From positions 461,984 to 525,983 of the forward strand of contig CBDBOV010000006.1 in assembly GCA_965208575.1 (NCBI GenBank): a DNA stretch of 64,000 bases, read 5' to 3'. The translations under genes and the position numbers were made by a program. Shown piece after piece: positions 3,677 to 60,979 of this stretch (the first letter of the stretch is position 1; every line of letters starts with the position of its first letter). The notes under the pieces were generated by a model. The model was not told where the DNA came from. It ran no database searches and saw only the letters and a list, made by a program, of their open reading frames with translations. Source of the stretch: Spirochaetia bacterium. GTDB taxonomy: Bacteria; Spirochaetota; Spirochaetia; SZUA-6; Bin103.

Positions 3677-6393
<2,717 letters not shown>

Positions 6394-6948
6394 AGCATAT
6401 CGCCTACCCCGCGGCGGGAACCAGTCGCCGCGGCACGGCCGGCGCGGACGGGACCTTCGCGAGCGGCCAGACGCGCGCGCATCCAAGGCGCCTTCTTCGC
6501 TGCGGGCCACGCCGAGGCGGCGGGCGTGTTCGAGCAGTCCGGCATCGTGGGCGCCTTCGGCGCGACGCGGCAGGAGACACCGCGGCCGCGGCGACGCCGC
6601 CCCGCGGCGGGCGCTGCGGCGGGCGCTGCGGCGGCCGCGGCCTGGGGCGGGCGGCGGATTCCGGCCTCCCCGCAAGTCGGTGCGAATCGGGCTCGCGCGG
6701 GCTGGCGAAGCGGCGGTCTGTGCCGCCGCAGCGGCGGCCCGCGGGGTCGATTCGGGGGCGAATCGATATCGAATCCACATCGTAAATCACGAAATTAACA
6801 CGCACATTTTACACGGAATCGGGGTACAAACCGGTAAAGAGCGGTCGATGCGGACTTGCGTGTTGCAGCGCCGCGCCGATGCCGCGTGAGAAGAGTGTTT
6901 GGCTCGTCGGTGGGGAGGAGGCGCATGATATTGGAGCAAGGAAACAGC

Positions 6949-6980
6949 TTGACAGCGGGGAATCTCCCCACTAGTATAAT
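6949..6980 (+). promoter_or_regulatory. Near-consensus sigma70-type promoter upstream of the autotransporter
   Basis: TTGACA 6949..6954. TATAAT 6975..6980 gives a 20-nt spacer; overlapping TAGTAT 6972..6977 gives a 17-nt spacer. The spacer holds the palindrome GGGGAATCTCCCC. Confidence 0.45.
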
Positions 6981-6983
6981 TAA

Positions 6984-7043
6984 GCGCCACAGCGCCACAG
7001 CGCCACAGCGCCACAGCGCCACAGCGCCACAGCGCCACAGCGC
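6984..7043. repeat. Octanucleotide tandem repeat (GCGCCACA) x7 plus GCGC
   Basis: Counted directly: seven perfect 8-bp units at 6984..7039, followed by a partial unit. Confidence 0.95.
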
Positions 7044-16201: not shown

Positions 16202-16402
16202 GATTCTCTGCCGGTGGCCGCGCCATCGCAACGACGCGGCGCCATTCGGCGGGGGATTCTAACCTGACCACTTGCGGGGCGGTAGCGCCTCGCGTGAGGT
16301 GCGTGAGGTGATGGTTGTCGGGGCGTTGACGATGGCGAACGCGACCGTATCCGCGCAGACAGGGCAGCCTGATTGTCGGAAAACACATTCGTGAGCCAAG
16401 TG

Positions 16403-25029: not shown

Positions 25030-25236
25030 AACGTAACTCCTCCTCGTTTTCGGGAGACGGGACCGGGTTCCGTCGCCCGTGGTCTTGGACCGGAGACTCC
25101 GGCCTTCTCGAATGGTCCTTGTATTCACGGCGCGGGGTATTGGAGCGGTAGGTGTGGATATGGACGGGAGCCGCTAGCAGCCCGTGGTGGAACCCGGCGT
25201 AGCACCGAGAGCGGCGAGGCGCCCGGCTGGCAAGGC

Positions 25237-27231: not shown

Positions 27232-27511
27232 GCGACGACGAACGAGCATATCCGGGCGCAGGAGTCTGTCGGGTGACGACAGGCTCCTGCGCGCAGGTTG
27301 GGATGGGCCGAAAGCGGCGTCCGTTGGACGGCGCTTTCGGGGCGATATGTGAGCGAGGAGCAAACGCAGCCAGCCGGGATGGATCGCCGCTCGAATGCAG
27401 CCGGAGCTCCACCACGGGCTGCTCGGTCGTCAGCGGCGCGGATGGTGGCAGAGCGGTGGACGTGGCTCGGTGGGCGTAGCGAACGGTCAGTTACCGGGTG
27501 CTTGGTTTGTT

Positions 27512-27530
27512 GGACGGAGCAGGACGGAGC
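27512..27530. repeat. Leader 10-bp tandem repeat GGACGGAGCA, about 2 units (L2)
   Basis: Read directly: ggacggagca ggacggagc. Confidence 0.8.
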
Positions 27531-27771
27531 GCTGGCGCTTGCAGCGAACCGGCGGCTGCGGCGGGCTGTGCAATCGCGCTTCATCCGCGCTTGTCCTCCT
27601 CCCGGAGCCATCACTCTACCACACGCCCGGCCACCGTCAAGCCGCCGCATTGACTCATCGAAAATCTAACCGTAGCGAAAGCATGCCTCATCTAAAAATC
27701 TAACCGAACGGGCTGGACCTTCCGGGTCCGGTTGGAGCCTCTCCGAGGGACGTGAGGAGGTTCCGGAGGAG

Positions 27772-31506: not shown

Positions 31507-32369
31507 CTACGAGCCGGAGCGATCCATGCGCGCAAGGAACTCGGCAATCGTGGCGCAGTCCACGATCCACTCTCCGGTTTCGGCGAGACGATCCGCGTCC
31601 GTCACTTCAGCAAGCACCGTCGCCAGCCGCTCCGCCGCCGCCGGGCCGAACCGCCGCTCCGCCAAGCGGCGCAACAACGCCTTCTCCCGCTCGATACCCT
31701 GCTCGATACCCTGCTCGATACCCTGCTCGATACCCTGCTCGATACCCTGCTCGATACCCCGCTCGATGCCCCGCTCGATGCCCCGCTCGATGCCCTGCTC
31801 GATGCCCTGCTCGATGCCCTGCTCCAGGATTTCCGCTCCCCAGCGATCAATCTTTTCCGCCAACACTGCACTTGCCTCCTCGTACTCGCGGATCGATGGC
31901 AACTCCACGCCCCACTTCCGCCCCAGGGCGCCGAGCCACAGGTCAAAGGTCCTCGTCAGCCCCGGCTCGCCTGCCTCGGCGAGCCATTCACCCAACTCCC
32001 GCACCCGCTCCGGCAGAGCCCCGACCTGCACGCTCTGCTCCACTTCCGCCACCCACCGTAGCAGGTTCGTCCGTGGCAGATCATCCCCTCTCACCGCCGC
32101 CAGATCAAGCACCTCGTAGCTCAGCGCCAGATGCGCGGCACCGTCCTGCTCCGTCCGCTCCACCAGCCCGGCGAGCGTTACCGGCGCGTCCCACCGTCTA
32201 TCACCATTGTACACGACCACGTGCAACACCGGGTCCGCCGTGTCGCTCTTGCTCCACTTGGTGCGGTCATGGTACAGCCGCTGGTACAGCAGGCTCGTGT
32301 AGTTCAGGAACCGCAACGGCATCGAGTAGTCCACGCTCGACTGATGCTCGATCACCACGTGCAGCGTGT
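31507..32369 (-). pseudogene. Rpn/YhgA-like nuclease copy R2, 3' part (split by a transposon)
   Basis: ORF 31507..32358 starts inside the nuclease core (VIEHQSSVDYSMPLRF). Collinear with R4 up to the CGTGT target duplication. Confidence 0.85.
31688..31823. repeat. 12-bp in-frame tandem repeat in R2, about 11 units
   Basis: The protein reads EQGIx3, ERGIx3, EQGIx5. Two DNA unit variants are present (gatacc and gatgcc types). Confidence 0.9.
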
Positions 32370-32525: not shown

Positions 32526-33137
32526 TTGGTACTCCATCTGGCGGTTGATTTCAAGAGACTTCAGGAACAGGGCAAGGAGTATCGGTGGCCGCGGCCGGAG
32601 CGCTGCCTGGAGTGCGGTCGGAGGCGGCCGTGGGGCCATGGCTATGTCGGACGGTGCTTCGATGGCTGCGGCGAGCCGCTGTGGATGAAGCGCTACCGGT
32701 GTCCGGACTGCGGGACCGTGTACACGCTGCGACCGGACAGCCACTACCGCGGGTTCTGGGCGCCGTGGCGAGTGATTCTGGTAGCCCTGCTGGGCAAGCT
32801 GAAGGGTGGTCGCTGGATCGCGCGGGTGAGCCGACAGCGGCAGCAGTACTGGCGCCAGGGGTTGCGCCGGCAGTTGTTGCTGGAGGGGGTGACCGCGGTG
32901 AGCCGGCCGGGCCAGGTTGCGGCCAGTGCGCTGAAGGCGCTGGTGGTGCGGTTGATCATCGTCAGTACGCATTCGGTGAGCTACCGCCAGATACGGCGAG
33001 TGGATGCCGCCCCCGAGTTGGTGCTGGCGGTGCCGGTGGTGGGCTTTGCGGGACACCTTGATGGCGTCGGGAGCACAGCAGACAGCGCCCTGAAGGAGCC
33101 AGGGAATGAGCCGACACCCAGTCACGGGGCACGATGA
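32526..33137 (+). CDS. Zinc-ribbon protein of the transposon (possibly DUF6431-like)
   Basis: CLECGRRRPWGHGYVGRCF...YRCPDCGTVYTLRP, i.e. two CxxC pairs. The family assignment is from memory only. Confidence 0.45.
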   Translation: MVLHLAVDFKRLQEQGKEYRWPRPERCLECGRRRPWGHGYVGRCFDGCGEPLWMKRYRCPDCGTVYTLRPDSHYRGFWAPWRVILVALLGKLKGGRWIARVSRQRQQYWRQGLRRQLLLEGVTAVSRPGQVAASALKALVVRLIIVSTHSVSYRQIRRVDAAPELVLAVPVVGFAGHLDGVGSTADSALKEPGNEPTPSHGAR

Positions 33138-33418
33138 GCACGGTGCTGGTCGCGGGGTGCCGGCTCAGACCGGGCAAGTGGCTGGTGAGCAGTGCAGGAG
33201 GACGCCGCCGCGGTGCTGGCGAGCGCCTTTGGCGCTTGGGTGGCTGTCCGGGCGACGCTGCGGGCAGGGCGCTGGTGGCGCGGCTGATCATGATCGGAGC
33301 GGAGAAAATAACGCGAACTGGCGCCTGGGTGACCCCAAGCCTACCGGATCTTTGCGGTGATCGGCGAACCAATGGGGAGCAAATTGATGCCACCAACACC
33401 CCAGGAGGTTCCTCGATC

Positions 33419-34735
33419 ATGGAGGAAGAGAAGAAAAAGCGGATCGCGTTGTTCCGGTTCGGTGTGATCGCCGGCCTGATCGGGTATGCGAAGCTCGACC
33501 AGGGCAAGCGCGAGGCGCGCATCAAGGACCTGGCGGAGCAGGAATGGAAGATCCCATTCTCGCTGCGCAGTTCGATCAGCCGGTCGACGATCCGCGACTG
33601 GCTGCGGCGTTACGAGCACAGCGGCAAGAAACTGGAGAGCCTGTTCCCGAAGGACCGCGCGGACGCCGGCGTGGGGCGCAGCATCGATCCCGAGACCGAG
33701 TTGGCACTGGTCAATCTCCGGCGTGAACTGGCACAGGCGTCGTTGTCAGTGGTGCTGCAGGTGGCGCGCCGCCGCAATCTCCTGCCGCCCGACTTCGCAG
33801 CCTCACGGCAAAGCATCTACCGATTGTTCCGGCGCCATGGTCTGCACCGGCAGCGGCCCGCGACGCAGGACCGGCGGCGCTTCGAAGCGGAACTGCCGAA
33901 CGACTTGTGGCAAGCGGATTGCATGCACGGCCCGCGCGTGAAAAGCGACGGCAAGCTGCGCAAGACGTTTCTGTTCGCCTGCATCGATGATCACTCGCGG
34001 CTCATCACCGGCGCCCGCTTCTATCTGCGTGAAAACATCGACTGTTTCCAGGACTGCCTGCTGCGGGCGCTCGAAACGCGCGGTCTGCCACGCAAACTGT
34101 ATGTCGATAACGGCCCCAGCTTTCGCTCCCAACGACTCAGTTACGCCTGTGCATCGCTGGGCATAGCGCTCCTCTTCGCGACCCCATACACGCCCCAGGG
34201 AAAGGGTAAAATCGAGCGCTATTTCCGCACCATACGCACCCAGATGCTGCCTCTGGTCAGCGATCACGATACCCTCGAGCAGCTCAACGCCCAGCTTGCC
34301 GAGTGGCTCGACCACAGCTACCATCAGCGGCTTCACTCCAGCACCGGGGAGCAGCCCCTGCAGCGCTATCTGCGCCACCTGGAACTGCTGCGGCCTGCGC
34401 CCCAGAATGTGCGTGACCACTTCCGCACCATGGTGCGCCGCAAGGTCGACAAGGATCGTGCCGTCGCCCTCTACGGCAAGCTCTACGAAGCGCCGGTGGG
34501 GCTCATCGGGAACACCGTCAACCTGCTCTATCATGAGGCTGATCCGTCCCGCATCGAGGTGTTCTTCGAAGATCGCTCTTACGGCTTCCTCAGTGAGTTG
34601 AACCCCCACGTCAACAGCCGCGTGCGCCGCATCAGCGGCCATGAGACCGAGCTCGAGCCGGCGCCGGAGCCGCCCGCTGATGACCCCCAGCCCGGCCCCC
34701 GCGGCGGCCAGCTGTTCGAGGAGTCCGACCGATGA
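33419..34735 (+). CDS. DDE transposase/integrase (rve; Mu-A/TniA/TnsB-like)
   Basis: ATG 33419 behind AGGAGG, inside ORF 33134..34735. WQADCMHGP...FACIDDHSRLI...LYVDNGPSFRS...TPQGKGKIERYFRT gives D, D, E contexts. Confidence 0.8.
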   Translation: MEEEKKKRIALFRFGVIAGLIGYAKLDQGKREARIKDLAEQEWKIPFSLRSSISRSTIRDWLRRYEHSGKKLESLFPKDRADAGVGRSIDPETELALVNLRRELAQASLSVVLQVARRRNLLPPDFAASRQSIYRLFRRHGLHRQRPATQDRRRFEAELPNDLWQADCMHGPRVKSDGKLRKTFLFACIDDHSRLITGARFYLRENIDCFQDCLLRALETRGLPRKLYVDNGPSFRSQRLSYACASLGIALLFATPYTPQGKGKIERYFRTIRTQMLPLVSDHDTLEQLNAQLAEWLDHSYHQRLHSSTGEQPLQRYLRHLELLRPAPQNVRDHFRTMVRRKVDKDRAVALYGKLYEAPVGLIGNTVNLLYHEADPSRIEVFFEDRSYGFLSELNPHVNSRVRRISGHETELEPAPEPPADDPQPGPRGGQLFEESDR

Positions 34736-35562
34736 TCGACCTCAGACATGCCTTCGGTTTCCAACGCGATCCGTTCCCCCAGGACGTCCCGATCAACGGT
34801 CTGTACCCGATCCCGGGCCTGAAAGCGCTCACCGAGCGCTTTCAGTATGCCCTCGGGCTCGGCCTCATCACCGTCATCACCGGCGAGGTGGGAGCGGGAA
34901 AATCCACTTCCCTGCGCCATGTCACGAGCACCCTGCACCCCGCCGAATACCGTCTCCTGGCGGTCATCGCCACCACCGGCACGCTGCTCGACCTGCTGCG
35001 CCAGATCTGCCTGGAGATGGGCACCCCCCCGCGCTCCTCACTGGCCGTCCTCAGCCGCACCGTGCGCGACCTGCTGACCGACATCAGGCGCAAGAAGCAG
35101 ACCCCGTTGCTGGTCGTCGACGAGGCACATCTGCTCCGCTTCGAGGTGTTCGCACAGCTCCACACTCTCACTCAGTTCGCCTTCGATTCGCAGACCTTGA
35201 TGCCGATGGTGCTGGCCGGCCAGAGCAGCCTGCTTGACCGCCTGTTGTTCCATACCTCGCGCCCGCTCGCCTCACGGGTCGTGGGCCGCAGCCACCTCGA
35301 TGCTCTCTCCCTTGATGACATGCGCGGCTACCTCGACCACCATCTGCAGCTCGCCGCCGGGCGGGACACCCAGTCCGCCACAGCGCGGCGCAGCGCCGAC
35401 CTGCTCAGCGACGAAGCCGCCGTCGCCATCCATCAGGGCTCCGGCGGGCTCCTGCGGCGCGCCAATCATCTCGCCCGCGGCGCCCTCATGGCGGCCGCTC
35501 GCGAGCATTGCTCGGTGGTCGCCGCCGAGCATGTCCGGCTCGCTGCCACCGAGATTCTGTAG
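34732..35562 (+). CDS. AAA ATPase, ExeA/TniB-like transposition helper
   Basis: Walker A ITGEVGAGKSTS, Walker B LLVVDEAHLL. The start overlaps the transposase stop (ATGA). Confidence 0.8.
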   Translation: MIDLRHAFGFQRDPFPQDVPINGLYPIPGLKALTERFQYALGLGLITVITGEVGAGKSTSLRHVTSTLHPAEYRLLAVIATTGTLLDLLRQICLEMGTPPRSSLAVLSRTVRDLLTDIRRKKQTPLLVVDEAHLLRFEVFAQLHTLTQFAFDSQTLMPMVLAGQSSLLDRLLFHTSRPLASRVVGRSHLDALSLDDMRGYLDHHLQLAAGRDTQSATARRSADLLSDEAAVAIHQGSGGLLRRANHLARGALMAAAREHCSVVAAEHVRLAATEIL

Positions 35563-36165: not shown

Positions 36166-36380
36166 GATTCTCTGCCGGTGGCCGCACCATCGCAACGACG
36201 CCGCGCCATTCGGCGGGGGATTCTAACCTGACGACCTGCGGGGCGGTAGCGCGTCGCGTGAGGTGCGTGAGGTGATGGTTGTCGGGGCGTTGACGATGGC
36301 GAACGCGACCGTATCCGCGCAGACAGGGCAGCCGATTGTCGGAAAACACATTCGTGAGCCAAGTGTCCGGCGGGCCGGAT

Positions 36381-39072: not shown

Positions 39073-39311
39073 AGCGTAACTCCTCCTCGTTTTCGGGAGC
39101 GGGACGGCGTCCCGTGCCCGTGTTCCTGGACCGGAAACTCCGGCCTCGTCGAATGGTCCTGGTAGTCGTTGTCGCACCCAAGGGCGCCGCGAGCGCCGCC
39201 TCGGATGGGAGTGGTGCGATGGGTGTGGATATGAGCGGGAGCCGCTACGTCGTTAGCGGCGCGGATGGCGACAGAGTGGTGGACGTGGCTCGGTGAGTGG
39301 AGAGAGCGGTC
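39073..39311 (-). promoter_or_regulatory. Conserved SBP leader, copy L3, truncated (no promoter or MKRD part)
   Basis: Matches the other leaders up to ...gagagagcggtc, then joins the 3' flank of Rpn copy R3. Confidence 0.5.
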
Positions 39312-39353
39312 GCGAGCGGATACGCGCAGGAGAACTGCTTTGGCGTGGCCGGG

Positions 39354-40007
39354 CCAAGAGCCGGAGCGATCGATGCGCGCAAGGAACTCGGCAATCGTGG
39401 CGCAGTCCACGATCCACTCTCCGGTTTCGGCGAGACGATCCGCGTCCGTCACTTCAGCAAGCACCGTCGCCAGCCGCTCCGCCGCCGCTGGGCCGAACCG
39501 CCGCTCCGCCAAGCGGCGCAACAACGCCCTCTGCCGCTCGATGCCCTGCTCCAGGATTTCCGCTCCCCAGCGATCAATCTTTTCCGCCAACACTGCGCTT
39601 GCCTCCTTGTACTCGCGGATCGATGGCAACTCCACGCCCCACTTCCGTCCCAGGGCGCCGAGCCACAGGTCAAACGTCCTCGTCAGCCCCGGCTCGCCAG
39701 CCTCGGCGAGCCACTCACCCAACTCCCTCACGCGCTCTGGCAGAGCCCCGGCCTGCACGCTCTGCTCCACTTCCGCCACCCACCGTAGCAGGTTCGTCCG
39801 TGGCAGATCATCCCCTCTCACCGCCACAGATCAAGCACCTCGTATCTCAGCGCCAGATGCGCGGCGCCGTCCTCCTCCGCCCTCGCCAGCAGCCCGGCGA
39901 ACGTCACCGGCGCGTCCCACCGTCTGTCACCATTGTACACGACCACGTGCAACACCGGGTCCGCCGTGTCGCTCTTGCTCCACTTGGTGCGGTCATGGTA
40001 CAGCCGC
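39354..40007 (-). pseudogene. Rpn/YhgA-like nuclease copy R3 (N-terminal deletion, frameshift near 39828, stop TAG changed to TGG)
   Basis: C-terminal part is in ORF 39069..39827 with a single EQGI unit. The middle part is in ORF 39818..40585. The 5' end is fused to the Rpn upstream spacer at about 40007. Confidence 0.75.
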
Positions 40008-43259: not shown

Positions 43260-43404
43260 AACGTAACTCCTCCTCGTTGTCGGGCACGGGACCGCGTCCC
43301 GTGCCCGTGATCTTGGACCGGAAACTCCGGCCATCTCGAGTGGTCCTGGTGGTCGCGCCGTGGAATGGTAGAGCGGCGGGTGTGGATATGGACGAGAGCC
43401 GCTA

Positions 43405-43651
43405 GCAGCCCGTGGTGGAACCCGGCGTAGCACCGAGAGCGGCGAGGCGCCCGGTTGGCAAGGCGCGAAGAACGAGCATATCCGGGCGCAGGAGTCTGTC
43501 GGGTGACGACAGGCTCCTGCGCGCAGGTGAGGATGGGCCGAAAACGGCGTCCATTGGACGACGGTTTCGGGGCGATACGTGAGCGAGGAGCAACGCAGCC
43601 AGCCGGGATGGATCGCCGCTCGAATGCAGCCGGAGTTCCGCCACGGGCTGC
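43405..43651 (-). mobile_element. 247-bp TIR-bounded non-coding element, copy B (uninterrupted)
   Basis: Left end gcagcccgtggtggaacccgg. The complement of the right end reads gcagcccgtggcggaactccgg (19/21). The element is absent from the leaders at 39241, 51320, 56390 and 60738, where the flanks join. It contains long internal hairpins. Confidence 0.65.
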
Positions 43652-43740
43652 TCGGTCGTCAGCGGCGCGGATGGCGACAGAGTGGTGGACGTGGCTCGGT
43701 GAGCGGAGAGAGCGGTCAGTTACCGAGTGCTTGGTTTGTT

Positions 43741-43758
43741 GCGGAGCAGGACGGAGCG
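43741..43758. repeat. Leader 10-bp repeat, about 1.5 units (L4)
   Basis: gcggagcaggacggagcg. Confidence 0.7.
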
Positions 43759-44164
43759 TTAGCGTTTGCAGCGAACCGCGCCCGCGGCGGGCTGTGTAAT
43801 CGCGTTTCATCCGCGCTTGTCCTCCTCCGGGAGGCCACCACGCTAGCACACGCCCCGACCACCGTCAAGCACGCGTTTGGAGGGTTGGCGGGTTGGTGGT
43901 TGCCACAGTTCCTCGGAGCATATTCTACGCCGCTTCCAGTCGTGACCTGGATCCGTTCAGTTGCAACGACGGGTCATACCCTACGGCTGCAAGACGCGTA
44001 ACCGCTCGACACCGGGTTCACAAGACAACGGCCGTTCCGAAAGGGATCAGCAGGAGGACGCAGCGGATGGCGTACGCTCTCACGGCAATGGAGACGATTG
44101 TTACGACAAGCGGGACCGTGAGACGAACCCTCAGCGTGGTCGGTGCGTGGTGACGCGCTTGTCG

Positions 44165-45295: not shown

Positions 45296-46318
45296 CTACG
45301 AGCCGGAGCGATCGATGCGCGCAAGGAAGTCGGCAGTCGTGGCGCAGTCCACGATCCACTCCCCGGTCTCGGCGAGACGATCCGCGTCCGTCATCTCGGC
45401 AAGCACCGTCGCCAGCCGCTCCGCCGCCGCAGGGCCGAACCGCCGCTCCGCCAAGCGGCGCAACAACGCCTTCTGCCGCTCGATGCCCTGCTCGATGCCC
45501 TGCTCGATGCCCTGCTCGATCCCCTGCTCGATGCCCTGCTCGATCCCCTGCTCCAGGATTTCCGCTCCCCAGCGATCAATCTTTTCCGCCAACACTGCAC
45601 TTGCCTCCTCGTACTCGCGGATCGATGGCAGCTCCACGCCCCACTTCCGCCCCAGGGCGCCGAGCCACATGTCAAAGGTCCTCGTCAGCCCCGGCTCGCC
45701 AGCCTCGGCGAGCCACTCACCCAACTCCCTCACCCGTTCCGGCAGAGTCCCGGCCTGCACACTCTGCTCCACTTCCGCCACCCACCGTAGCAGGTTCGAC
45801 CGTGGCAGACCATCACCCCTCACCGCCACCAGATCAATCACCTCGTAGCTCAGCGCCAGATGCGCGGCACCGTCCTGCTCCGTCCGCTCCACCAGCCCGG
45901 CGAGCGTCATCGGCGCGTCCCACCGGTTGTCTCCATTGTACACGACCACGTGCAACACCGCGTCGGCCGTGTCGCTCTTCCTCCACTTGGTGCGGTCATG
46001 GTACAGCCGCTGGTACAGCAGGCTCGTGTAGTTCAGGAACCGTAGCGGCATCGAGTAGTCCACGCTCGACTGATGCTCGATCACCACGTGCAGCGTGTGC
46101 ACGCCGCCGCGCCCGTCGCGCCGGTCGATCGACCACACCACGTCACCAAGCCGCCGCCGCAACTCGTCGGTGACGTTCTCGGTGGGGCCTTCGCGCAGGC
46201 TGTCGAAGTCGAGAGCGGCGGCCCATCCCGACGGCCGCCGCGGGGCGATGAACCCGAGGAGCAAGTCCTTGACGATGCGTTGGTGCGTGAGCAGGCGTTT
46301 GTACGCGGGGTCGTCCAT
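45296..46318 (-). CDS. Rpn/YhgA-like PD-(D/E)XK nuclease (copy R4, intact)
   Basis: ATG 46318 (MDDPAYKRLLTHQRIVKDLL) in ORF 45296..46348. LHVVIEHQSSVDYSMPLRFLNY. Six EQGI units. Confidence 0.85.
   Translation of the reverse strand: MDDPAYKRLLTHQRIVKDLLLGFIAPRRPSGWAAALDFDSLREGPTENVTDELRRRLGDVVWSIDRRDGRGGVHTLHVVIEHQSSVDYSMPLRFLNYTSLLYQRLYHDRTKWRKSDTADAVLHVVVYNGDNRWDAPMTLAGLVERTEQDGAAHLALSYEVIDLVAVRGDGLPRSNLLRWVAEVEQSVQAGTLPERVRELGEWLAEAGEPGLTRTFDMWLGALGRKWGVELPSIREYEEASAVLAEKIDRWGAEILEQGIEQGIEQGIEQGIEQGIEQGIERQKALLRRLAERRFGPAAAERLATVLAEMTDADRLAETGEWIVDCATTADFLARIDRSGS
45477..45553. repeat. 12-bp in-frame tandem repeat in R4, about 6 units
   Basis: The protein reads EQGIEQGIEQGIEQGIEQGIEQGIERQ. 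Confidence 0.9.
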
Positions 46319-46541
46319 GGTTCTCTGCCGGTGGCCGCGCCATCGCAACGACGCCGCGCCATTCGGCGGGGGATTCTAACCTGACGACTTGCGGGGCGGT
46401 AGCGCCTCGCGTGAGGTGCGTGAGGTGCGTGAGGTGATGGTTGTCGGGGCGCTGACGATGGGGTACGCGACCGTATCCGCGCAGACAGGGCAGCCGATTG
46501 TCGGAAAGACGTTCGTGAGCCAAGTGTGCGGCGGGCCGGAT

Positions 46542-47388: not shown

Positions 47389-48249
47389 TCACTTCTTGGG
47401 CGCTCCGTAGCGACCGCTACCGCCGCGCAGCCGGGGGTCGAGCAGGTCGCGGATCGCGTCGCCGAACATGTTGATGCCGTACACGACAACGGTCAGGCAC
47501 AGGCCCGGCCAGATCGCCAGCCGCGGCGCGATGGTCATGTACTGGCGTCCCTCGCGGCTGAGCATGCCGCCCCAGCTCGGCACCGTGGTCGGCAGTCCGA
47601 AGCCGAGGAAGCTCAGCGACGCCTCGGCCACGATGATGGCGCCGATGGTGATCGAGAAGATGATGATGATGGGCGGCATGACATTCGGCAGCACGTGTCG
47701 CCACAGGATCTGTGCGGCGGGGCTGCCAACTGCTCGGGCGGCCTGGAAGTAGTCGTTCTCCTTGATGGCGATGACGGCACTGCGCATCACCCGGGAATTG
47801 CTGATGCCCGAGGAGATGCCGAGCACGACAATGATCTGTAGCACACCACGGCCGGCCAGCGACATGATCGTCAGCAACAGCAGCAGCCCCGGCATCGACA
47901 TCCACGCGTCGACGAAGCGTTGCACTATCAGATCGTATTTTCCGCCGAGAAACCCGGCGACGCCACCGACCAGCGCCGCGACCACCACGTGCAAGGTGGT
48001 CGCCGCCAGCCCGACAAACAGCGACAGGCGCGCCCCGTGGATCAGCCGGCTCAGGAAGTCGCGTCCCAGCTGGTCGGTGCCGAGCGGATGCACGCTCGAT
48101 GGCTCCGCCAGGCGATTATCCAGGTTCATCTCGCCGAAACGAAATGGCGCCAGAACATCGGCAAAGACACTCACCAGGATCAACACCAGCAGGATGGCGG
48201 CCCCGACGGTACCCAACGGATGCTCCCTGAGCAGTCTCTTCAGCAGCAT
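47389..48249 (-). CDS. ABC transporter permease, DppC/OppC-like (cassette 5)
   Basis: 286-aa ORF. HPLGTDQLGRDFLSRLIHGARLSL. Same sub-family as cassette 1. Confidence 0.85.
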   Translation of the reverse strand: MLLKRLLREHPLGTVGAAILLVLILVSVFADVLAPFRFGEMNLDNRLAEPSSVHPLGTDQLGRDFLSRLIHGARLSLFVGLAATTLHVVVAALVGGVAGFLGGKYDLIVQRFVDAWMSMPGLLLLLTIMSLAGRGVLQIIVVLGISSGISNSRVMRSAVIAIKENDYFQAARAVGSPAAQILWRHVLPNVMPPIIIIFSITIGAIIVAEASLSFLGFGLPTTVPSWGGMLSREGRQYMTIAPRLAIWPGLCLTVVVYGINMFGDAIRDLLDPRLRGGSGRYGAPKK

Positions 48250-48254
48250 ACCCG

Positions 48255-49217
48255 CTACCGGTAGCGCACGCGCGGGTCGAGCAACCCGTAGAGCAGATCG
48301 ACCACCAGGTTGATGACCACCACGCCGGCGGCAAAGACCAGGTTTACGCCGGAGACCATCGGGTAATCTCGGTCGACGAGGGCATTCACCAAGAGACGCC
48401 CGATCCCCGGCAGGTTGAAGATGTTCTCCATTATTACCGATCCGCCGATCAGGATGGGGAGCTGCAGACCGGTGAGGGTGATCACCGGAATGAGGGCATT
48501 CTTGATGGCGTGCCTGACGACGACCACTCGTTCCCGCAGGCCCTTGGACCAGGCCGTTCGTACGTAGTCTTGCCTGAGCACCTCCAGCATCATGGTGCGG
48601 GTCATGCGCATGGTCGCGGCGGCGAAGTAGGTGCCCAGAATCAGACTGGGGACGATGAACACGCCGAGATTGCCGAGCAGGTCATCGGAGAGGGCAATCA
48701 TCCGAATCGGCGGGGTCCAGTTCCACCAGATCGCCGGAAAGACAATGACCAGCAGACCCAGCCAGAAGTTGGGCGTCGCCAATCCGACTACCGCTAGGGA
48801 ACGCCCAGCGTAGTCGGCGAGCGTGTTACGGCGGATCGCCGAGTAGATGCCCACCGGCAGCGCGATGATGAGCCCGATGGCGATTGACAGAAGGCCAAGC
48901 TCGAGGGTGACCGGCAACCTGCGGAGAATCTGCTCCTCTATCGTAATGGCGCTGCCAAGCAGCGACTTCCCGAGCGTGCCGTCCAGCACGATGCCGCCGA
49001 TCCAGCGCGCGTACTGCACGTGCGCAGGCACATCAAGGCCGAGAAAGCGCTCGAGCTCTGCGCGAGTTTCAACAGTTCCTCCAGAAATACTGCTGGTCAA
49101 AAGCATCGCGTCGATAACATCACCGGGGATGAAACGGATGAGCAGGAACACCAGGATGCTGACCAACAACAACGTCGGGATCATCAGCAGCAGCCGTCTA
49201 ATGATGTAGGCTCTCAT
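48255..49217 (-). CDS. ABC transporter permease, DppB/OppB-like (cassette 5)
   Basis: 320-aa ORF. MRAYIIRRLLLMIPTLLLVSILVF...MLEVLRQDYVRTAWSKGL. Confidence 0.85.
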   Translation of the reverse strand: MRAYIIRRLLLMIPTLLLVSILVFLLIRFIPGDVIDAMLLTSSISGGTVETRAELERFLGLDVPAHVQYARWIGGIVLDGTLGKSLLGSAITIEEQILRRLPVTLELGLLSIAIGLIIALPVGIYSAIRRNTLADYAGRSLAVVGLATPNFWLGLLVIVFPAIWWNWTPPIRMIALSDDLLGNLGVFIVPSLILGTYFAAATMRMTRTMMLEVLRQDYVRTAWSKGLRERVVVVRHAIKNALIPVITLTGLQLPILIGGSVIMENIFNLPGIGRLLVNALVDRDYPMVSGVNLVFAAGVVVINLVVDLLYGLLDPRVRYR

Positions 49218-49378: not shown

Positions 49379-51157
49379 TCAGAACCCCATCGATTTCTTC
49401 AGATCGAGGTCGAGCCAGAGGCGCGCCAAGACAGGGGCGCGACTCCAATTTATGAACTCGCCGTCGTAGCCCTTGACCCAGGGCTGGTTCACATTGAGAT
49501 TCGGTGCCTTGCCGCCCCACACGTAATAGTGGTTTCGCAACATGAGTAGGAGCGCTTCCTGCGAAGCCCTCTGCTGCTCCTCGAGAGTAGACGCGCTTTG
49601 CGCGGCCTGAAACAGGGCATCGAACTCCGGGTTCGACACACCGGCGGGGTTCCATCCCGCGGTTGAGAGGCTCTGCGCCAACGGAGACAGCTCACCCCAC
49701 GTATTCCCCACCGGATAGGAGGTCATGCTTTGGTAATCATGATTATTGATCCCAGCCGCCCAATCAGCGGTGGACGTGACCTGTACCTCGACGTCGATAC
49801 CAACCTCGAGAAGCTGCTCCGCCATGATCTCGAATATGTTCACATCGTAGACATCTCTTGCCTCGATGTTGGTTTTGAACCTGATACCATCGGCGCCGCG
49901 CGGGTAGCCGGCATCGTCGAGGAGCTTCTCTGCCTCGGCCGGGTTGTACCGGTAGAACTTCTTGATCTCCTCGGGCCACTCGTCGAATGGCGGTGAATAC
50001 CCTACGATGTCGATCGCCGTGTGGGCCTCAGGCGTCGCTCTCCCCCTGCCCTTCCAGTAGGAGTCGTTGATCGCTTCCACATCGAGTGCCATCTGGACCG
50101 CGTGGCGAACTCTGAGGTCGTTGGTCGGCTCCACGGCGAGATTCATCGCAAGACCCATTCCGCTCTCATAATACTCCGTGACCTGGGTTTCGGGATTGGT
50201 CCGCGTGAGATCCTCAACAACGTCGACACTGTATATATGCGAATAGGAGAGCCCACCCAAGTAGTCGATCTGGCCCGACCGGAATGCTGCCAAACGCGTC
50301 GACTCCTCGGGCATCACCAACCACACGATCTCGTCGATATAGGGCAGGCGATTGTCCGGGTACTTCTCGTCGAACGCCCAGTAGTTGGGGTTCTTGGTGT
50401 AGCTCAGGGAGCTGCCCTCGACCCAGTCGACCAGCTCATAGGGGCCGGTGCCAACCAGGTTGCGCCAATCCAAGAGGTCGCCGTGCTCTTCGATGACCTC
50501 TGGCGGCATGATGTTACTGGTGTAATGGTAGAGGATCGTCCGCTCCGCGGCGAAATTGGGCTCCTTTAGCCGAAAGACGACCGTATGGTCGTCGGTGGCC
50601 GTTACCGATTCGATGCCGATGTCGTCGAGCTGCGACTGCTGCGCCACGATGGGGCTGCCTTCGGTGTAGCCACTGCCCAGCCCCAAATAGCGGTGCCAGT
50701 TGTATTCCACATCCTTGGCAGTGAGCTCCCGACCATTCATCGGCGCCTTGTCGTGCCAGTGGACGCCGCTTCGGATCCGGACCGCAAGCGTCACCGGGTC
50801 GGTCCATTCCCAGCTCTCGGCCAACTCACCGGCTATCGCGAAGAGAGGCAGATACCCCGATTGAAAACCGAATCGCTGCCTGTCTATCGCCCAGTCCGCG
50901 ATGCCCAGCTTCTCGTTCGTGAACATCCAGGCAACCTGACCCACGTGCCCTTGCCAGGGGTCGGAATTCGCAGGCTCGGCGACCGACCCGAAGGTGATGG
51001 TGCCGCCGTACTCGGGCGCGGTCACCATCTTGCCGGTGGCTGGGTCGCGCACCATTTCCTTCTCGGCCGCGGATGCTTCCTCGCCCTCGGCGGCGGCGAA
51101 CGTAACGGTAGCCACCAGCGCGAACGCCAGCGGCAGCAATAGGAGTCTTGGAGTCAT
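49379..51157 (-). CDS. ABC transporter substrate-binding protein, family 5 (cassette 5; chimeric 5' end)
   Basis: 592-aa ORF. The first ~52 aa are near-identical to SBP2/3/4/6/7. The remainder is cassette-1-like (HWHDKAPMNGRELTAKDVEYNWHR). Confidence 0.85.
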   Translation of the reverse strand: MTPRLLLLPLAFALVATVTFAAAEGEEASAAEKEMVRDPATGKMVTAPEYGGTITFGSVAEPANSDPWQGHVGQVAWMFTNEKLGIADWAIDRQRFGFQSGYLPLFAIAGELAESWEWTDPVTLAVRIRSGVHWHDKAPMNGRELTAKDVEYNWHRYLGLGSGYTEGSPIVAQQSQLDDIGIESVTATDDHTVVFRLKEPNFAAERTILYHYTSNIMPPEVIEEHGDLLDWRNLVGTGPYELVDWVEGSSLSYTKNPNYWAFDEKYPDNRLPYIDEIVWLVMPEESTRLAAFRSGQIDYLGGLSYSHIYSVDVVEDLTRTNPETQVTEYYESGMGLAMNLAVEPTNDLRVRHAVQMALDVEAINDSYWKGRGRATPEAHTAIDIVGYSPPFDEWPEEIKKFYRYNPAEAEKLLDDAGYPRGADGIRFKTNIEARDVYDVNIFEIMAEQLLEVGIDVEVQVTSTADWAAGINNHDYQSMTSYPVGNTWGELSPLAQSLSTAGWNPAGVSNPEFDALFQAAQSASTLEEQQRASQEALLLMLRNHYYVWGGKAPNLNVNQPWVKGYDGEFINWSRAPVLARLWLDLDLKKSMGF

Positions 51158-51594
51158 AGCGTACTCCTCCTCGTTTTCGGGAGCGGTACTGCGTCCCTGT
51201 ACCCGTGGTCTTGGGCCGGAAACTCCGACCCTTCTGGAATGGTCCTCGTAGATGTCGCACCCAAGGGCGCCGCGAGCGCCGCCCGGGATGGGCGTGGTGC
51301 GATGGGTGTGGATATGAACGGGAGCGGATAGTCGTCAGCGGCGCGGATGACGGCAGAGTGGTGGATGCGGCTCGGTAAGCGGAAAGAGCGGTCAGTTACC
51401 GGGTGCTTGGTTTGTTGCGGAGCAGGACGGAGCAGGACGGAGCAGGACGGAGCAGGACGGAGCAGGACGGAGCAGGACGGAGCAGGACGGAGCGGTAGCG
51501 AACTGACGGATGCGGCGGGCTGTGTGATCGCGCTTCATCCGCGCTTGTCCTCCTCCCGGAGCCATCACTCTACCACACGCCCGGCCACGGTCAA
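51158..51594 (-). promoter_or_regulatory. Conserved SBP leader, copy L5
   Basis: -35 TTGACC 51589..51594, 16 nt, -10 TAGAGT 51567..51572, GGAGGAGG, ATG 51538 (MKRDHTARR). This upstream ORF stops at 51392. Confidence 0.5.
51417..51495. repeat. Leader 10-bp tandem repeat (AGCAGGACGG), about 8 units (L5)
   Basis: Seven perfect units at 51421..51490 plus partial units on both sides. Confidence 0.95.
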
Positions 51595-51773
51595 GTACGC
51601 GTTTGGCGGGTTGGCGGACTGGTGGTTGCCACAGTTGCCTCGGAGCATATTCCGCTTCCAGTCGTGACCTGGATCCGTTCAGTCTGCAACGACCGGGCAA
51701 ACCCTGCGGCTGCAAGCGGTCCGACATTGATCATGGTTCCCGTAGCGCCAGTGTCCAGGGCGAGAACGCCGGC

Positions 51774-52255
51774 TCACGATGCTGGTCCGTCTCCGTGCGA
51801 TGCTTGCAACGCTCTCAATCGCGTGAGAATGTCCGGCGCTTCCTTCAACTCGCACAGCGGTTGCAACTCGGCTTCAACCAAGGCCCAGTCGAGCCGGCGG
51901 CCTATGCGCAGCACTATGCCTTCAATATCCGCCCAGTCACGCGAGCGATCAGCAAGGGCCGCCGATGAAGCAGAATTTCCAGCCGCGCTCCCGGCAGAAC
52001 GACTGGATGTCATTCGCCAGCCGAAAGAGGTCGCGCATCCCGGATTCTGGCAAACATCGCCTGCTGCTGCACCAGCCCGGAGGTGGTGCGCACCGGACCC
52101 GCGAGCGTCGCTTCGAACGCACCATTTAGTGCATCGATGTGGTCGGCCACCTCGACGTCGCGGAGTTCGGAGCGTCGCAGCGCCGCCAGCCTGGCGCCGG
52201 CAATACGCCACCGTTCGACGAACCCGCGCAATTCGCCGTCAAGATCGCCCGCCAT
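51774..52255 (-). pseudogene. Degraded nucleotidyltransferase-like gene spread over three frames
   Basis: N-terminus is in ORF 52010..52255. RDLFRLANDIQSFCRERGWKFCFIGG is in a second frame. ADRSRDWADIEGIVLRIGRRLDWALVEAELQPL is in ORF 51774..52211. The central domain is deleted. Confidence 0.55.
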
Positions 52256-54464: not shown

Positions 54465-56252
54465 CTAAGAGCCCAGCTCCCGCTTCAGATCCTGGTCCAC
54501 CCACAGGTACATGAGAACGGTGGACCGTTGCATCCCGCCGACATCGCCTTCCCCGTTGTAGCCCTTGATCCACGGCTGGGTGGCGCCGAACAGGGGAGCA
54601 ACCGGCCCCCTGATCATCCACAGCTGCTCGGCGATGCGCAGGTTGGCCTGCCGCGCCCACTCCTGCTGCTCCTCTACCGTGGTAGCGGCCAGCGCTTTCT
54701 CGTAGATTTCGTCGAATACCGGGTCGTTGTTGTTGTTGGGGTTCCAGCCGGCTTTCGACCAGTAAGAGTTTATCGGGGCAAGGCCACTGGGATACTCGGC
54801 AGCCCATACGTCGGTGCGCAAGCCTGGATATCCGTGGCTCATGCCCCACTCGCTATTCTGCGCGCGAGTTATTTCCTCGATCTCGACGTCGATGCCGATC
54901 TGCCGGAGGTAATCCATGGCGATCTGGTAATAGCCGAGGTCGAAGAACTCGTAGTGCGAATAGATGGTGCTGAACCGGATGCCGTCTTCACCGCGCGGAT
55001 AGCCGGCATCGTCGAGCAGCCTCTCGGCTTCCTCGGGGTCGTACCGATAGTATTGCTGGGTCTCCTCGGGCCACTCCTCGAACGGGACGGCATACCCGAG
55101 CACCCTGGCGCCGGTGGCCCCTTGCGGGCTTGCATCGCCCCAACCCTGCTGGTAATTCTCGGCGATGGACTCGTGGTCGATGGCCAGGCTGAGGGCCTGG
55201 CGCACGCGGATGTCGCTCCAGGGCTCCTTCTGGAGGTTGAAACCGAACGCGGTCTCCGACCGGTAGGAATACGGGTGCAGCACCAGGTCGGGTTTGGTCT
55301 TCTGCAGATTGACCGCCGAGTCGACACTGGTGAGATGGGAGTTGAGTCCGAACCCAATCCAGTCCGCCTGTCCGGAGCGCATCAGTGAGGTGATGGCTGT
55401 CATGTCGTTGACGACCAGGAACTCGATGGTGTCCGCGTAGGGCAAACGATTGTCCGGGAATTTCGGGTCGAAACCCCAATAATCGTCGATCTTGGTGTAG
55501 GTCCAGGAGCTGCCCTCCACCACGTCGGTCAGTTGAAAGGGGCCCGTTCCGGTCACGTTGCGCCAGTCCTGAATGTCTCCGAACTCATCGACCACCTCGC
55601 GGGCGACGATGTAGCCATGCTCTGCCACGAGCATGCGGCTGAACGCGGTGACACTGGGCTCCTGCAGCTTGAATACCACCGTCGAATCGTCGGTAGCGGC
55701 AACCGATTCCCACTTTATGTTGCAGATATCGAAGCCCCCCGGGCAGTCCGGGCTCGGCTCGCCGCCGTCCACCCCGAACAGGAGCCGCTGCCAACTGTAG
55801 GCGACATCGTGCGCGGTGAGCTGCCGGCCGTTCACCGGCGCCTTGTCGTGCCAGAACACGCCGTCGCGGATCTTGAACACGGCGGTGAGCGGATCCGGCC
55901 TCTCCCAGCTCTCGGCCAGTTGTCCGACGAGGGCCTCGTCGGGCAGGAACAGCGTAGTGTAGCCGACCTTGCTCCGGTCGATCGCCCAGTCGCCCACGCC
56001 GAGCTTCTCGTTGACCAGCCCGATGAAGGCTCCCGCGGAGTAGCGGAAATAGGGGTCGATCCCCTCCGGCTTGAAGTTGATGACCGCCCTGATCGTGCCG
56101 CCATACTCGGGCGCGGTGACCATCTCGCCGGTGCTCGGGTCGAGCACCATCTCCTTCTCGGCCGCGGCCGCCTCCTCGCCTTCTCCGGCGGCAAACGTAA
56201 CGGTAGCCACTAGCGCGAACACCAGCGGCAGAAATAGGAATCTTGGAGTCAT
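54465..56252 (-). CDS. ABC transporter substrate-binding protein, family 5 (cassette 6)
   Basis: 595-aa ORF. MTPRFLFLPLVFALVATVTFAAGEGEEAAAAEKEMVLDPSTGEMV. Confidence 0.85.
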   Translation of the reverse strand: MTPRFLFLPLVFALVATVTFAAGEGEEAAAAEKEMVLDPSTGEMVTAPEYGGTIRAVINFKPEGIDPYFRYSAGAFIGLVNEKLGVGDWAIDRSKVGYTTLFLPDEALVGQLAESWERPDPLTAVFKIRDGVFWHDKAPVNGRQLTAHDVAYSWQRLLFGVDGGEPSPDCPGGFDICNIKWESVAATDDSTVVFKLQEPSVTAFSRMLVAEHGYIVAREVVDEFGDIQDWRNVTGTGPFQLTDVVEGSSWTYTKIDDYWGFDPKFPDNRLPYADTIEFLVVNDMTAITSLMRSGQADWIGFGLNSHLTSVDSAVNLQKTKPDLVLHPYSYRSETAFGFNLQKEPWSDIRVRQALSLAIDHESIAENYQQGWGDASPQGATGARVLGYAVPFEEWPEETQQYYRYDPEEAERLLDDAGYPRGEDGIRFSTIYSHYEFFDLGYYQIAMDYLRQIGIDVEIEEITRAQNSEWGMSHGYPGLRTDVWAAEYPSGLAPINSYWSKAGWNPNNNNDPVFDEIYEKALAATTVEEQQEWARQANLRIAEQLWMIRGPVAPLFGATQPWIKGYNGEGDVGGMQRSTVLMYLWVDQDLKRELGS

Positions 56253-56613
56253 GATGTACTCCTCCTCTTATTCGGGAGCGGGACTGCGTCCCGGTACCCG
56301 TGGTCTTGGGCCGGCAACTCCGGCCTTTTCGAATGGTCGTAGTATTCGCGGCGCGGGATAGTGGATCGATGGGTATGAATACGGACGGGAGCCGCTACTA
56401 GCCCGTCAGCGGCGCGGTGGTGCGGTGAGCGGAGAGAGCGGTCAGTTACCGGTTGCTTGGCGTGTTGCGGAGCAGGACGGAGCAGGACGGAGCAGGACGG
56501 AGCGCTAACGCTTGCAGCGAACGGGCGGCCGCGGCGGGCTGTGTGATCGCGCTTCATCCGCGCTTGTCCTCCTCCCGGAGCCATCACCGTACCACACCGC
56601 CGGTATCCGTCAA
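56253..56613 (-). promoter_or_regulatory. Conserved SBP leader, copy L6
   Basis: -35 TTGACG 56608..56613, 16 nt, -10 TACGGT 56586..56591, GGAGGAGG, ATG 56557 (MKRDHTARR). The upstream ORF ends at TGA 56251..56249, overlapping SBP6 ATG 56252..56250. Confidence 0.5.
56466..56503. repeat. Leader 10-bp repeat, about 3.5 units (L6)
   Basis: gcggagcaggacggagcaggacggagcaggacggagcg. Confidence 0.9.
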
Positions 56614-56774
56614 GTACGCGTTTTGCGCACGATACTCTCCCGCCGGCCGAACACCCCGGCTTGAACTACGACCAGCCCAGGAGCGGAACAAACGCGTAAC
56701 CGCTCGACACCGGGTTCACAAGACAACGGCGGTTCGGTCAGACGTGTAGCCGTCTCAGAACGGTCGGCGAACCG

Positions 56775-56949
56775 CTACTCGCTGAGCAGATCGACGAAGC
56801 GCCGGTTGATGTAGTAGTTCTCGCGGCCCCGCCGGATGCGCTCCAAGGACCCGAGTTGAGTCATTTTTTCAAGGTAGCGTCGGGCCGTGAGGCGGCCGCA
56901 TCCGAGTTCCCGCTCCACTATGCCAATCTTGCAGTACGGCCACTTGGCG
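56775..56949 (-). pseudogene. C-terminal winged-helix fragment of a Fic-family protein, fused in frame to the permease remnant
   Basis: KIGIVERELGCGRLTARRYLEKMTQLGSLERIRRGRENYYINRRFVDLL, the typical Fic C-terminal wHTH pattern. No Fic core is present. Confidence 0.5.
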
Positions 56950-60573: not shown

Positions 60574-60979
60574 AGCGTACTCCTCCTCGTATTCGGGAGC
60601 GGGACTGGGTCCGGTACCCGTGGTCTTGGGCCGGACACTCCAGCCCTCTCGAATGGTCCTGGTAGTCATCGCACCCAAAGGCGCCCCGAGCGCCACCTCG
60701 GATAAGCGTGGTGCGATCGCTGTGGATACGAACGGGTGCCGCTACGCCGTTAGCGGCGCAGATGGCGGCCGAGGGGTATATGAGGCTCGGAGAGCGGCGG
60801 GAGCGGTCAGTTACCGGGTGCTTGGTTTGTTGCGGAGCAGGACGGAGCAGGACGGAGCGCTGGCGCTTGCAGCGAACGGCGCGTCTACGGCGGGCTGTGT
60901 AATCGCGCTTCATCTGCGCTTGTCTTCCTCCCGAAGCGATCACTCTACCACACGTCCGGCATCCGTCAAGTACGCGTTT
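60574..60979 (-). promoter_or_regulatory. Conserved SBP leader, copy L7
   Basis: -35 TTGACG 60974..60979, 16 nt, -10 TAGAGT 60952..60957, GGAGGAAG, ATG 60913 (MKRDYTARR). The upstream ORF runs out of frame past the SBP7 start to 60278. Confidence 0.5.
60832..60859. repeat. Leader 10-bp repeat, about 2.5 units (L7)
   Basis: gcggagcaggacggagcaggacggagcg. Confidence 0.85.

Follow-up and report, generated by a model that had tools for sequence, protein, structure and literature searches.

Why would the leader of a nutrient uptake operon hold a perfect 10-nucleotide (nt) tandem repeat inside a short upstream open reading frame (uORF)? The question is raised by leader L5 (positions 51158 to 51594, minus strand), which precedes operon 5 in a 64,000-nt stretch of contig CBDBOV010000006.1 from a Spirochaetia bacterium (the window; positions given without a locus name refer to it). 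Between 16 and 61 kb the window contains at least seven paralogous minus-strand operons, each consisting of a gene for a substrate-binding protein (SBP) of the SBP_bac_5 family followed by two Opp/Dpp-type permease genes, and mobile elements (Transposase_31/Rpn-like genes, rve and Mu-type transposases, and a group II intron) are scattered through this array. Five of the operons have a common leader of 360 to 640 nt (L2, L4, L5, L6, and L7), in which the number of repeat units differs between strains and resets the uORF frame. With slightly less than even confidence, we favor a contingency-type leader repeat that would tune or switch each operon.

A common leader precedes five paralogous operons

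Alignment of the five leaders bears out the shared layout described in an earlier note on this DNA, together with its caveat that small indels also distinguish them. Read in the direction of the operon, the leader consists of a promoter, a uORF that begins with MKRD and includes the perfect 10-nt repeat CUCCGUCCUG, the motif GGTAACTGACC, about 220 nt of C-rich, G-poor, weakly structured RNA, and the SBP Shine-Dalgarno sequence. The elements of L5 and its operon are the following.

51567-51594, minus: predicted sigma-70-type promoter (consensus scan, 2 sites versus 0.1 expected), with -35 TTGACC at 51589-51594, a 16-nt spacer, and a TG-extended -10 TAGAGT at 51567-51572
51549-51556, minus: GGAGGAGG, Shine-Dalgarno-like, before the uORF; predicted in addition to act as the purine arm that pairs with repeat units
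51392-51538, minus: uORF of 48 codons, MKRDHTARR..., with ATG at 51538 and TGA at 51394-51392
51418-51493, minus: perfect tandem repeat, CUCCGUCCUG in the RNA sense, 7.6 units (Tandem Repeats Finder)
51390-51400, minus: GGTAACTGACC, a conserved "stop trap" motif with TAA and TGA in two different frames
51173-51389, minus: remainder of the leader, rich in C and poor in G, with local hairpins at three places (51265-51284, 51214-51230, and 51178-51205), from composition and folding
51164-51172, minus: strong SBP Shine-Dalgarno sequence GAGGAGGAG, partly paired with an upstream UCCCG in the consensus fold (helix 398-402 with 413-418)
49379-51157, minus: SBP_bac_5 gene of operon 5, ATG at 51157 (Pfam)
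48255-49217 and 47389-48249, minus: the two permease genes that follow (Pfam)

The L5 promoter layout is kept in all leaders and in their relatives, and we infer that transcription starts there and that the uORF is translated. Two sets of relatives were compared. One is a homologous leader (L008) from a metagenome of the sponge Aplysina aerophoba (MKWU01; PMC5649159), whose SBP is 55 to 56% identical to that of L5; the other is clade B (L003 to L006, L032, and L035 to L037), metagenomic contigs with SBPs about 80% identical. The window paralogs share the uORF ATG and the first approximately nine codons with L008 and clade B, save for AAG/AAA and CGC/CGT exchanges. Leader blocks that are invariant or nearly so across the relatives are GCGGATGAA.CG..AT..CA.AGCCC, the repeat unit, AACC.AGC..CGGTA, CTGACCG, GCGCCGCTGAC, CCGGAGTT.CCGG, and the Shine-Dalgarno region, and the blocks from -35 to about +60 are highly conserved.

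The other leaders of the window, one of them truncated, are these.

56253-56613, minus: L6, repeat at 56468-56502 (3.5 units), uORF open to an ATGA overlap
60574-60969, minus: L7, repeat at 60833-60857 (2.5 units), uORF passing the SBP ATG
43260-43868, minus: L4, repeat at 43742-43756 (1.5 units), with an insertion resembling a miniature inverted-repeat transposable element (MITE) at about 43402-43654
25030-27640, minus: L2, repeat at 27515-27529, split by a MITE-like element and a group II intron at about 25237-27228
39073-39330, minus: L3, 3' half only, the 5' half (promoter, uORF, and repeat) being replaced by the end of a Transposase_31/Rpn-like gene

The 10-nt repeat to which the earlier note had drawn attention forms perfect arrays in L2, L5, L6, and L7 and amounts to 1.5 units in L4. 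Tandem Repeats Finder gives 100% matches for the L5 array and delimits the perfect period-10 arrays of the other leaders at 56468-56503 (L6, 3.6 copies), 60833-60858 (L7, 2.6), and 27512-27530 (L2, 1.9). In the window, the 16-mer GGACGGAGCAGGACGG occurs 14 times at two or fewer mismatches, against 0.12 expected, and ATGAAGCGCGAT six times, against 0.58. The uORFs end where they had been placed: at an ATGA overlap with the SBP start in L4 and L6, at a stop 237 nt before the SBP ATG in L5, and beyond that ATG, out of frame, in L7. As a conserved feature, the translational coupling that had been read into the overlap did not stand, since only some leaders reach it and others pass the ATG. The TGA is simply the SBP ATG followed by its second codon, ACT, and several leaders run past it.

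Of the 40 most C>G-skewed 100-nt windows on this strand, nearly all come from the leaders, above the 99th percentile; typical values are C ~49 and G 15 to 20, the best leader windows have C = 45 to 52 and G = 15 to 23, and the skew reaches 0.53 in L5 (C = 49, G = 15). This RNA folds no better than dinucleotide shuffles, with z values of +1.24 (L5), -0.27, and -1.4 to +1.95 over whole-leader and 5'-module folds. A compact, strongly structured riboswitch-like RNA was not supported, given these z-scores, which are around zero or positive, and sparse covariation. A known RNA family was rejected: Rfam 15 matched no leader at the gathering thresholds, L5 and L6 remained empty up to E = 10, and the only match in the window was the group II intron, in agreement with the earlier statement that the leader is no described riboswitch. 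An intrinsic terminator of the kind found at pil1 (see below) was absent from the transcribed strand of the L5 and L6 regions (51100-51800 and 56200-56800), where the leader hairpins are without U tracts. Finally, a conserved protein of about 100 amino acids before the SBP was discarded. The read-through peptides are of low complexity (Arg/Pro/Ser/His), many indels are not multiples of three, and shuffled leaders keep the frame open (P = 0.18 to 0.76), as expected from the caveat, already raised, that long ORFs arise here by chance. Some indels are multiples of three (21, 27, and 3), and compensating indels keep L2, L6, and L7 in frame with L4; this pattern (p ~0.04) is suggestive only. For annotation, the leaders yield spurious ORFs of 100 to 200 codons, and assemblies break inside them.

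Repeat number differs between strains and resets the uORF

A second locus, L040, contains orthologs of L7, L6, and L4 with SBPs 99.3 to 99.8% identical to those of the window. Repeat number, which had been proposed as the thing to compare between strains, differs by one unit at L7 (2.5 units in the window versus 3.5 in L040), between SBPs more than 99% identical and leaders otherwise separated by three single-nucleotide polymorphisms (SNPs) in about 400 nt. The additional unit converts a uORF that reads through into one of 38 codons that stops at the GGTAACTGACC motif. The L6 leaders have 3.5 units in both strains and no differences at all (363/363), whereas L4 has 1.5 units in the window and 2.5 in L040, where this leader also has a large deletion. 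Another L040 leader reaches 8.8 units, and L002, whose SBP is 97% identical to that of L5, starts inside an array of at least 5.5 units. Judged from these alignments, the leader repeat is a genuine slippage-type polymorphism. Of the slipped-strand switch put forward in the earlier note, the part that stands is thus the one-unit polymorphism between strains that resets the uORF frame; coupling to the SBP start, as a conserved feature, does not.

Different repeats occupy the same position in related leaders

Clade B leaders have a variant of the first repeat, CUCAG(U/C)CCUG, in 1.6 to 2.9 copies, and a second 10-mer, ACAGCCCCCC, within uORF codons 6 to 9. The latter is present in 3.7 copies in L003 to L005 (Tandem Repeats Finder) and as a single full unit in L006; the SBP proteins of these loci are identical and their leaders one SNP apart. 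The uORF product is 19 amino acids long in L003 and 33 in L006. In MRSD-type leaders the repeat is a 7-mer, (CCGCUCA), with 11.6, 6.9, 4.0, and 3.6 copies in L007, L033, L034, and L038, respectively. MKRHD-type leaders have poly-C instead: C13 in L041, C12 in L043, C22 in a second L041 leader, and C9 in L019. The difference between C13 and C12 flips the uORF between 132 and 50 codons, although it may be a sequencing error, the assemblies being from long reads at 13x and 4x. The tracts take the position of the 10-nt repeat, just 5' of a CCAAGCA.CCGGTAAC..CTGACC block.

L041 15293-15305 and 19052-19073: poly-C tracts
L043 6686-6697: poly-C tract
L019 342-350: poly-C tract

Every such repeat falls after the uORF ATG and before the first stops; the approximately 250 nt of leader downstream contain none. 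Their unit lengths (10, 7, and 1 nt) are never divisible by three. By a rough estimate, three to four independent origins within about 27% of the leader would correspond to p 0.005 to 0.02.

What follows the repeat recurs as well. In MKRD-type leaders it is GGTA(A/G)(0 or 3 nt)CTGACC, in which TAA or TAG and TGA always stand in two different frames; the 3-nt indel leaves their offset unchanged, and in L035 a TAA-to-TAG change keeps the stop that its own uORF uses. The third frame is without a stop up to the SBP start in all 12 leaders examined. MRSD-type leaders have two TAGs in different frames, at +5 and +12 after the repeat and within the DNA palindrome CTAGCTGCTAG, with the third frame open to -22, and the poly-C type has TGA and TAA at +5 and +28, with the third frame open to -2. 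Two stops in two frames within about 30 nt and an open third frame (to -22, -2, or +1 of the SBP ATG) are therefore found in three leader types that could not be aligned in this region. The recurrence, which comes without statistical proof, is suggestive of a shared architecture.

A mutable leader as the favored reading

A repeat whose unit is not a multiple of three inside the uORF, combined with a leader of rut-like (Rho utilization) composition, leads us to favor a mutational switch or rheostat. The cassette of promoter, leader, and signal peptide sits before each Opp/Dpp-type (SBP_bac_5) operon of the family. Repeat units are gained or lost by replication slippage at a rate comparable to that of point mutation, and each one-unit change rotates the uORF through the three frames, two of which are caught by the stop pair in GGTAACTGACC. 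The third remains open for about 220 to 250 nt; among the leader types examined, about two thirds have it ending no more than 22 nt from the SBP start. Each change also alters the length of naked C-rich RNA. Frame and exposed length together would then set, heritably but reversibly, how far ribosomes shield the C>G-skewed leader, and shielding would set the frequency of premature termination before the SBP gene, most probably by Rho; Rho-dependent polarity is proposed because no intrinsic terminator was found. Each paralogous operon could in this way be dialed high or low independently within a population, as a contingency locus or a form of bet hedging. The specific route through Rho and ribosome shielding, which we take by analogy from known attenuators, is tentative and on balance rather unlikely.

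Known rut sites are C>G biased, poorly structured, and optimally 60 to 90 nt long, and Rho subunits contact 5 nt each with linkers of 4 to 5 nt (PMC12360218). The leaders contain C>G-biased, weakly structured stretches of 60 to 90 nt or more. It is conceivable, although unlikely, that the C-rich repeat is itself an adjustable Rho-loading site, in which slippage would tune termination stepwise while uORF frame and stop trap would govern shielding of the rest of the leader. Its 10-nt period would approximate the Rho register of a 5-nt contact plus a 4- to 5-nt linker, and 6 to 8 units would span an optimal rut site of 60 to 80 nt.

Several observations weigh against a mutable switch. The third frame is also open in shuffled leaders (P = 0.18 to 0.76 per leader), because stops are rare in this composition, and uORF states are spread at about one third in each frame, as expected without selection. 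Only about two thirds of the leaders have a read-through frame that stops at or close to the SBP ATG. The uORF Shine-Dalgarno sequence is absent from clade B and L008 and is thus not conserved beyond the window's own leaders. Leaders have been able to take up a group II intron, a MITE of 250 nt, and an insertion sequence (IS) and to lose a large segment by deletion, and the C12/C13 difference, taken from long-read assemblies of low coverage, could reflect a sequencing error. Similar C-rich repeats also occur in 5' leaders of unrelated genes: the one in the window (6983-7043) is without a uORF, and a 7-mer array in L032 follows a 3-codon mini-ORF without being part of it. Such repeats in leaders without a uORF indicate that frame resetting alone is not the whole story, which favors a component of RNA length or structure.

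To our knowledge, contingency loci built on simple sequence repeats have been described almost exclusively in host-adapted pathogens and for surface structures. In the present case, a whole family of nutrient uptake operons would follow this logic, with different repeat types having arisen at the same position in related leaders. If the mutable leader is functional, symbiotic or environmental bacteria would use bet hedging of this kind as a general strategy, and repeat slippage would be linked to attenuation that depends on the uORF and probably on Rho, a pairing that has so far gone undescribed. Were the repeat itself a rut site, it would be the first repeat-driven Rho-dependent attenuator, and the array a combinatorial, heritable lottery of uptake systems in a host-associated nonpathogen.

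Alternative explanations

The strongest alternative, doubtful in our view but a serious possibility, is that the leader is truly cis-regulatory, through some protein, sRNA, or structural target, while the repeats are neutral or nearly neutral microsatellites whose copy number is without regulatory meaning. A conserved 1.5-unit direct repeat and its C-rich neighbor would slip in a repeat-prone lineage, and changes that are not multiples of three would survive only where the RNA is untranslated. Tandem repeats are indeed common in this lineage (the in-frame 12-mer of Rpn-like genes, an 8-mer and a 9-mer near other promoters, and the L032 7-mer at 21.6 copies). The even spread of uORF frames, the unconserved uORF Shine-Dalgarno sequence, the open frames that composition alone produces, and the tolerance of large insertions and deletions all speak for neutrality. 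It accounts less well for the position of the repeats, as repeats of four kinds are confined to the short uORF segment and absent from the equally noncoding 250 nt downstream, or for the two-frame stop pair right after the repeat in three leader types, or for the maintenance of long perfect arrays (7.6, 8.8, and 11.6 units, and C22).

A second alternative, distinctly unlikely, is a hairpin rheostat similar to that of hmw. In such a model the pyrimidine-rich units would pair with a purine-rich 5' segment (GGAGGAGGAC...GCGGAUG) containing the ribosome-binding site and AUG of the uORF. The number of units would determine how stable this long 5' hairpin is, or in which register it forms, and would thereby affect processing of the mRNA (e.g., by RNase III), its stability, or initiation at the uORF, independently of frame. 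In minimum free energy (MFE) and centroid structures of L5 and L6, the purine-rich uORF start region (GGAG-G-AGGAC-A-AGCG-C-GGAUG) is paired with two to three repeat units, with GGAGGAGG of L5 pairing with CUCC/GUCCU of the repeat, and the hairpin recurs in most leaders. A GGAC:GUCC helix is kept in the consensus fold, with one compensatory change, GGGC:GCCC, in L035. The model has the precedent of hmw (PMC12721329) and could also account for repeats in leaders without a uORF. However, the folding energies are no better than those of dinucleotide shuffles, and covariation is limited to 4 of 49 pairs in a structure that was itself built from that alignment. L008 has lost the purine arm by deletion, clade B has an altered version of it, and the 7-mer and poly-C repeats are without an obvious purine partner.

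The weakest alternative, a very improbable effect at the DNA level in which the repeat, 70 to 145 bp downstream of the predicted transcription start, would alter the distance or helical phasing of a downstream operator relative to the promoter or would form non-B DNA (a template GG-tract quadruplex) that impedes RNA polymerase, draws on a 10-bp unit of about one helical turn, on the template strand (GGACGGAGCA)n and the likewise G-rich complements of ACAGCCCCCC and poly-C, and on the high conservation from -35 to about +60, but no operator or regulator was identified, the 7-bp unit breaks helical phase and has a complement without G tracts, and GG tracts form only weak two-tier quadruplexes.

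Relation to known leader systems

The mechanism that we favor has published precedents in pil1 (PMC3894217) and hmw (PMC12721329). At the pil1 locus of Streptococcus gallolyticus, (GCAGA)n in a leader-peptide gene alters the length of the peptide, and the translating ribosome melts a premature terminator (Danne et al. 2014, PMC3894217). In both systems the operon transcript begins with a short leader ORF that contains a tandem repeat whose unit is not a multiple of three; in both, the gain or loss of a unit shifts the leader-peptide stop relative to the downstream RNA, with short and long states among isolates. They differ in that pil1 has a stem-loop intrinsic terminator between leader ORF and operon, of which none was found here, and in the repeat itself (a 10-nt unit in 1.5 to 9 copies versus a 5-nt unit in about 22). 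Moreover, the device described here precedes at least five paralogous transporter operons rather than a pilus operon, in an environmental, probably sponge-associated host rather than a pathogen.

In Haemophilus influenzae, (AUCUUUC)n in the 5' untranslated region (UTR) of hmw and a G-rich arm form a hairpin that is processed by RNase III (PMC12721329). The (ATCTTTC)n tracts of hmw1A and hmw2A resemble the present arrays in being pyrimidine rich, within a long 5' UTR, and of strain-variable copy number (PMC12721329, PMC8262952); transcription and pairing with a purine arm are predicted in the present case, and a graded "volume-knob" effect of the hmw kind is plausible. As to the transcript, the group II intron of L2 lies in operon orientation, and a conserved predicted promoter stands upstream of the leader repeats. 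The hmw hairpin, unlike the one predicted here, needs about 10 repeats and a downstream G-rich arm, and its cleavage by RNase III has been verified experimentally. In the present leaders, which have shorter arrays, the purine arm lies upstream and includes the uORF start, and neither thermodynamics nor covariation gives the hairpin more than weak support.

Shielding of rut sites by uORFs is established for tnaC, speFL, and mgtL (PMC12360218). Like these attenuators (tnaC, speFL, mgtL/mgtA, and corA), the leaders have a short ORF followed by a long, C>G-skewed, weakly structured segment in which no intrinsic terminator was found, and the position of the ribosome on the leader would decide Rho access. 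The known cases sense a metabolite or ion through ribosome stalling, whereas here the change in frame or length would be mutational. Stochastic control involving Rho is known for invertible DNA (fim, flgB) and, as far as a review shows, not for simple sequence repeats (PMC12360218).

Leaders are homogenized within genomes

The leaders of L5 and L6 are 84% identical, whereas their SBPs share only 48% of their amino acids; the comparison of L5 with its clade B ortholog shows the reverse pattern (SBP 81%, leader only 69%). Within the window, the segment comprising promoter, leader, and signal peptide (e.g., 51040-51594 and 56135-56613) is 83 to 85% identical in nucleotides between paralogs, and the first 40 SBP residues have at least 79% amino-acid identity, versus 46 to 81% for the mature SBPs. 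The leaders thus group by genome and not by SBP orthology, which argues for concerted evolution of a promoter, leader, and signal-peptide cassette and points to gene conversion or cassette exchange as what may keep it uniform. SBP copies 98 to 99% identical to that of L6 are present in many samples, several of them labeled "Spirochaetaceae bacterium" at NCBI, and the host is probably sponge associated. A lookup for the exact L5 SBP protein returned no record, and a scan of genome contigs for the DNA pattern gave one chance hit, in an ftsK-like gene.

The order and number of SBP operons vary between the conspecific strains L039 to L043, so the array is recombinationally fluid. Rpn-like genes adjoin leaders at a common GACCGCTC(T/G)CTCC motif in the window (39073-39900, at L3), in L040 (14069-15200), and in L039 (15894-17000).

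Insertions and further repeats near the leaders

The MITE-like insertion, of 252 to 259 nt, is found in L4 (about 43402-43654) and in L2 (25174-27425, intron included), has inverted termini of about 13 nt (GAGCAGCCCGTGG...CCACGGGCTGCT), and occupies the loop of a conserved leader hairpin (GCCGCUG...UAGCGGC). L5, L6, and L7 are without a copy, and L002, the 97% ortholog of L5, has a shortened one. The group II intron in L2 (25237-27228, minus strand) sits within the MITE-like element; its boundaries were deduced by comparison with L4. It matches Rfam RF02005 at 26943-27159 (152 bits) and includes a reverse-transcriptase ORF at 25313-26653. In L032, an IS (DDE_Tnp_1) lies between a complete leader and its SBP gene (7720-8156 and 8397-9875).

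Three Transposase_31/Rpn-like genes contain an in-frame 12-nt repeat, GCTCGATGCCCT on the plus strand, encoding (EQGI)n.

15385-15436: Rpn-like 12-nt repeat, 4.3 copies
31689-31824: Rpn-like 12-nt repeat, 11.3 copies
45478-45553: Rpn-like 12-nt repeat, 6.3 copies

Coding repeats here are thus multiples of three, and the leader repeats are not. Two Rpn-like genes (32141-32156 and 45870-45885) also hold an exact 16-nt inverse copy of the leader repeat, reading GGACGGAGCAGGACGG in the mRNA and serving as codons for TEQDG, with variants at 15753 and 39867. Such a match is far below chance for a random 16-mer. With transcription of both, the leader repeat could base pair with the Rpn mRNA. An origin of the repeat in Rpn-like genes, or its targeting by them, was considered and not adopted; other Rpn paralogs read EEDG, so the match may be coincidence. 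A 9-nt repeat, GCGTGAGGT (sense ACCTCACGC), precedes Rpn-like genes just 5' of a TTAGAAT -10-like box.

46409-46436: 9-nt repeat GCGTGAGGT at one paralog, 3.1 copies
16292-16310 and 36256-36274: the same repeat at two other paralogs, 2.1 copies each

On the plus strand at 6950-7043, a near-consensus promoter (TTGACA, 17 nt, TAGTATAAT) is followed at once by a perfect C-rich array, (AGCGCCAC)7.6, without an ATG; the array precedes a gene for a secreted protein that is cut off by an IS at about 7466. In L032, (CCGATAC)21.6 lies directly before the Shine-Dalgarno sequence of an unannotated gene of 395 amino acids, with the 3-codon mini-ORF upstream, and the same locus has (GGTCAGTG)7.8.

L032 18899-19049: (CCGATAC)21.6 array
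L032 18010-18071: (GGTCAGTG)7.8 array

Elsewhere in the window, a minus-strand gene at 3973-6780 encodes a hybrid sensor kinase of 935 amino acids with GAF, PAS, HisKA, HATPase, receiver, and OmpR-type DNA-binding domains, and a Mu/Tn7-like transposase (rve and Mu-transpos_C) is paired with an AAA_22 ATPase at 33134-35562 on the plus strand.

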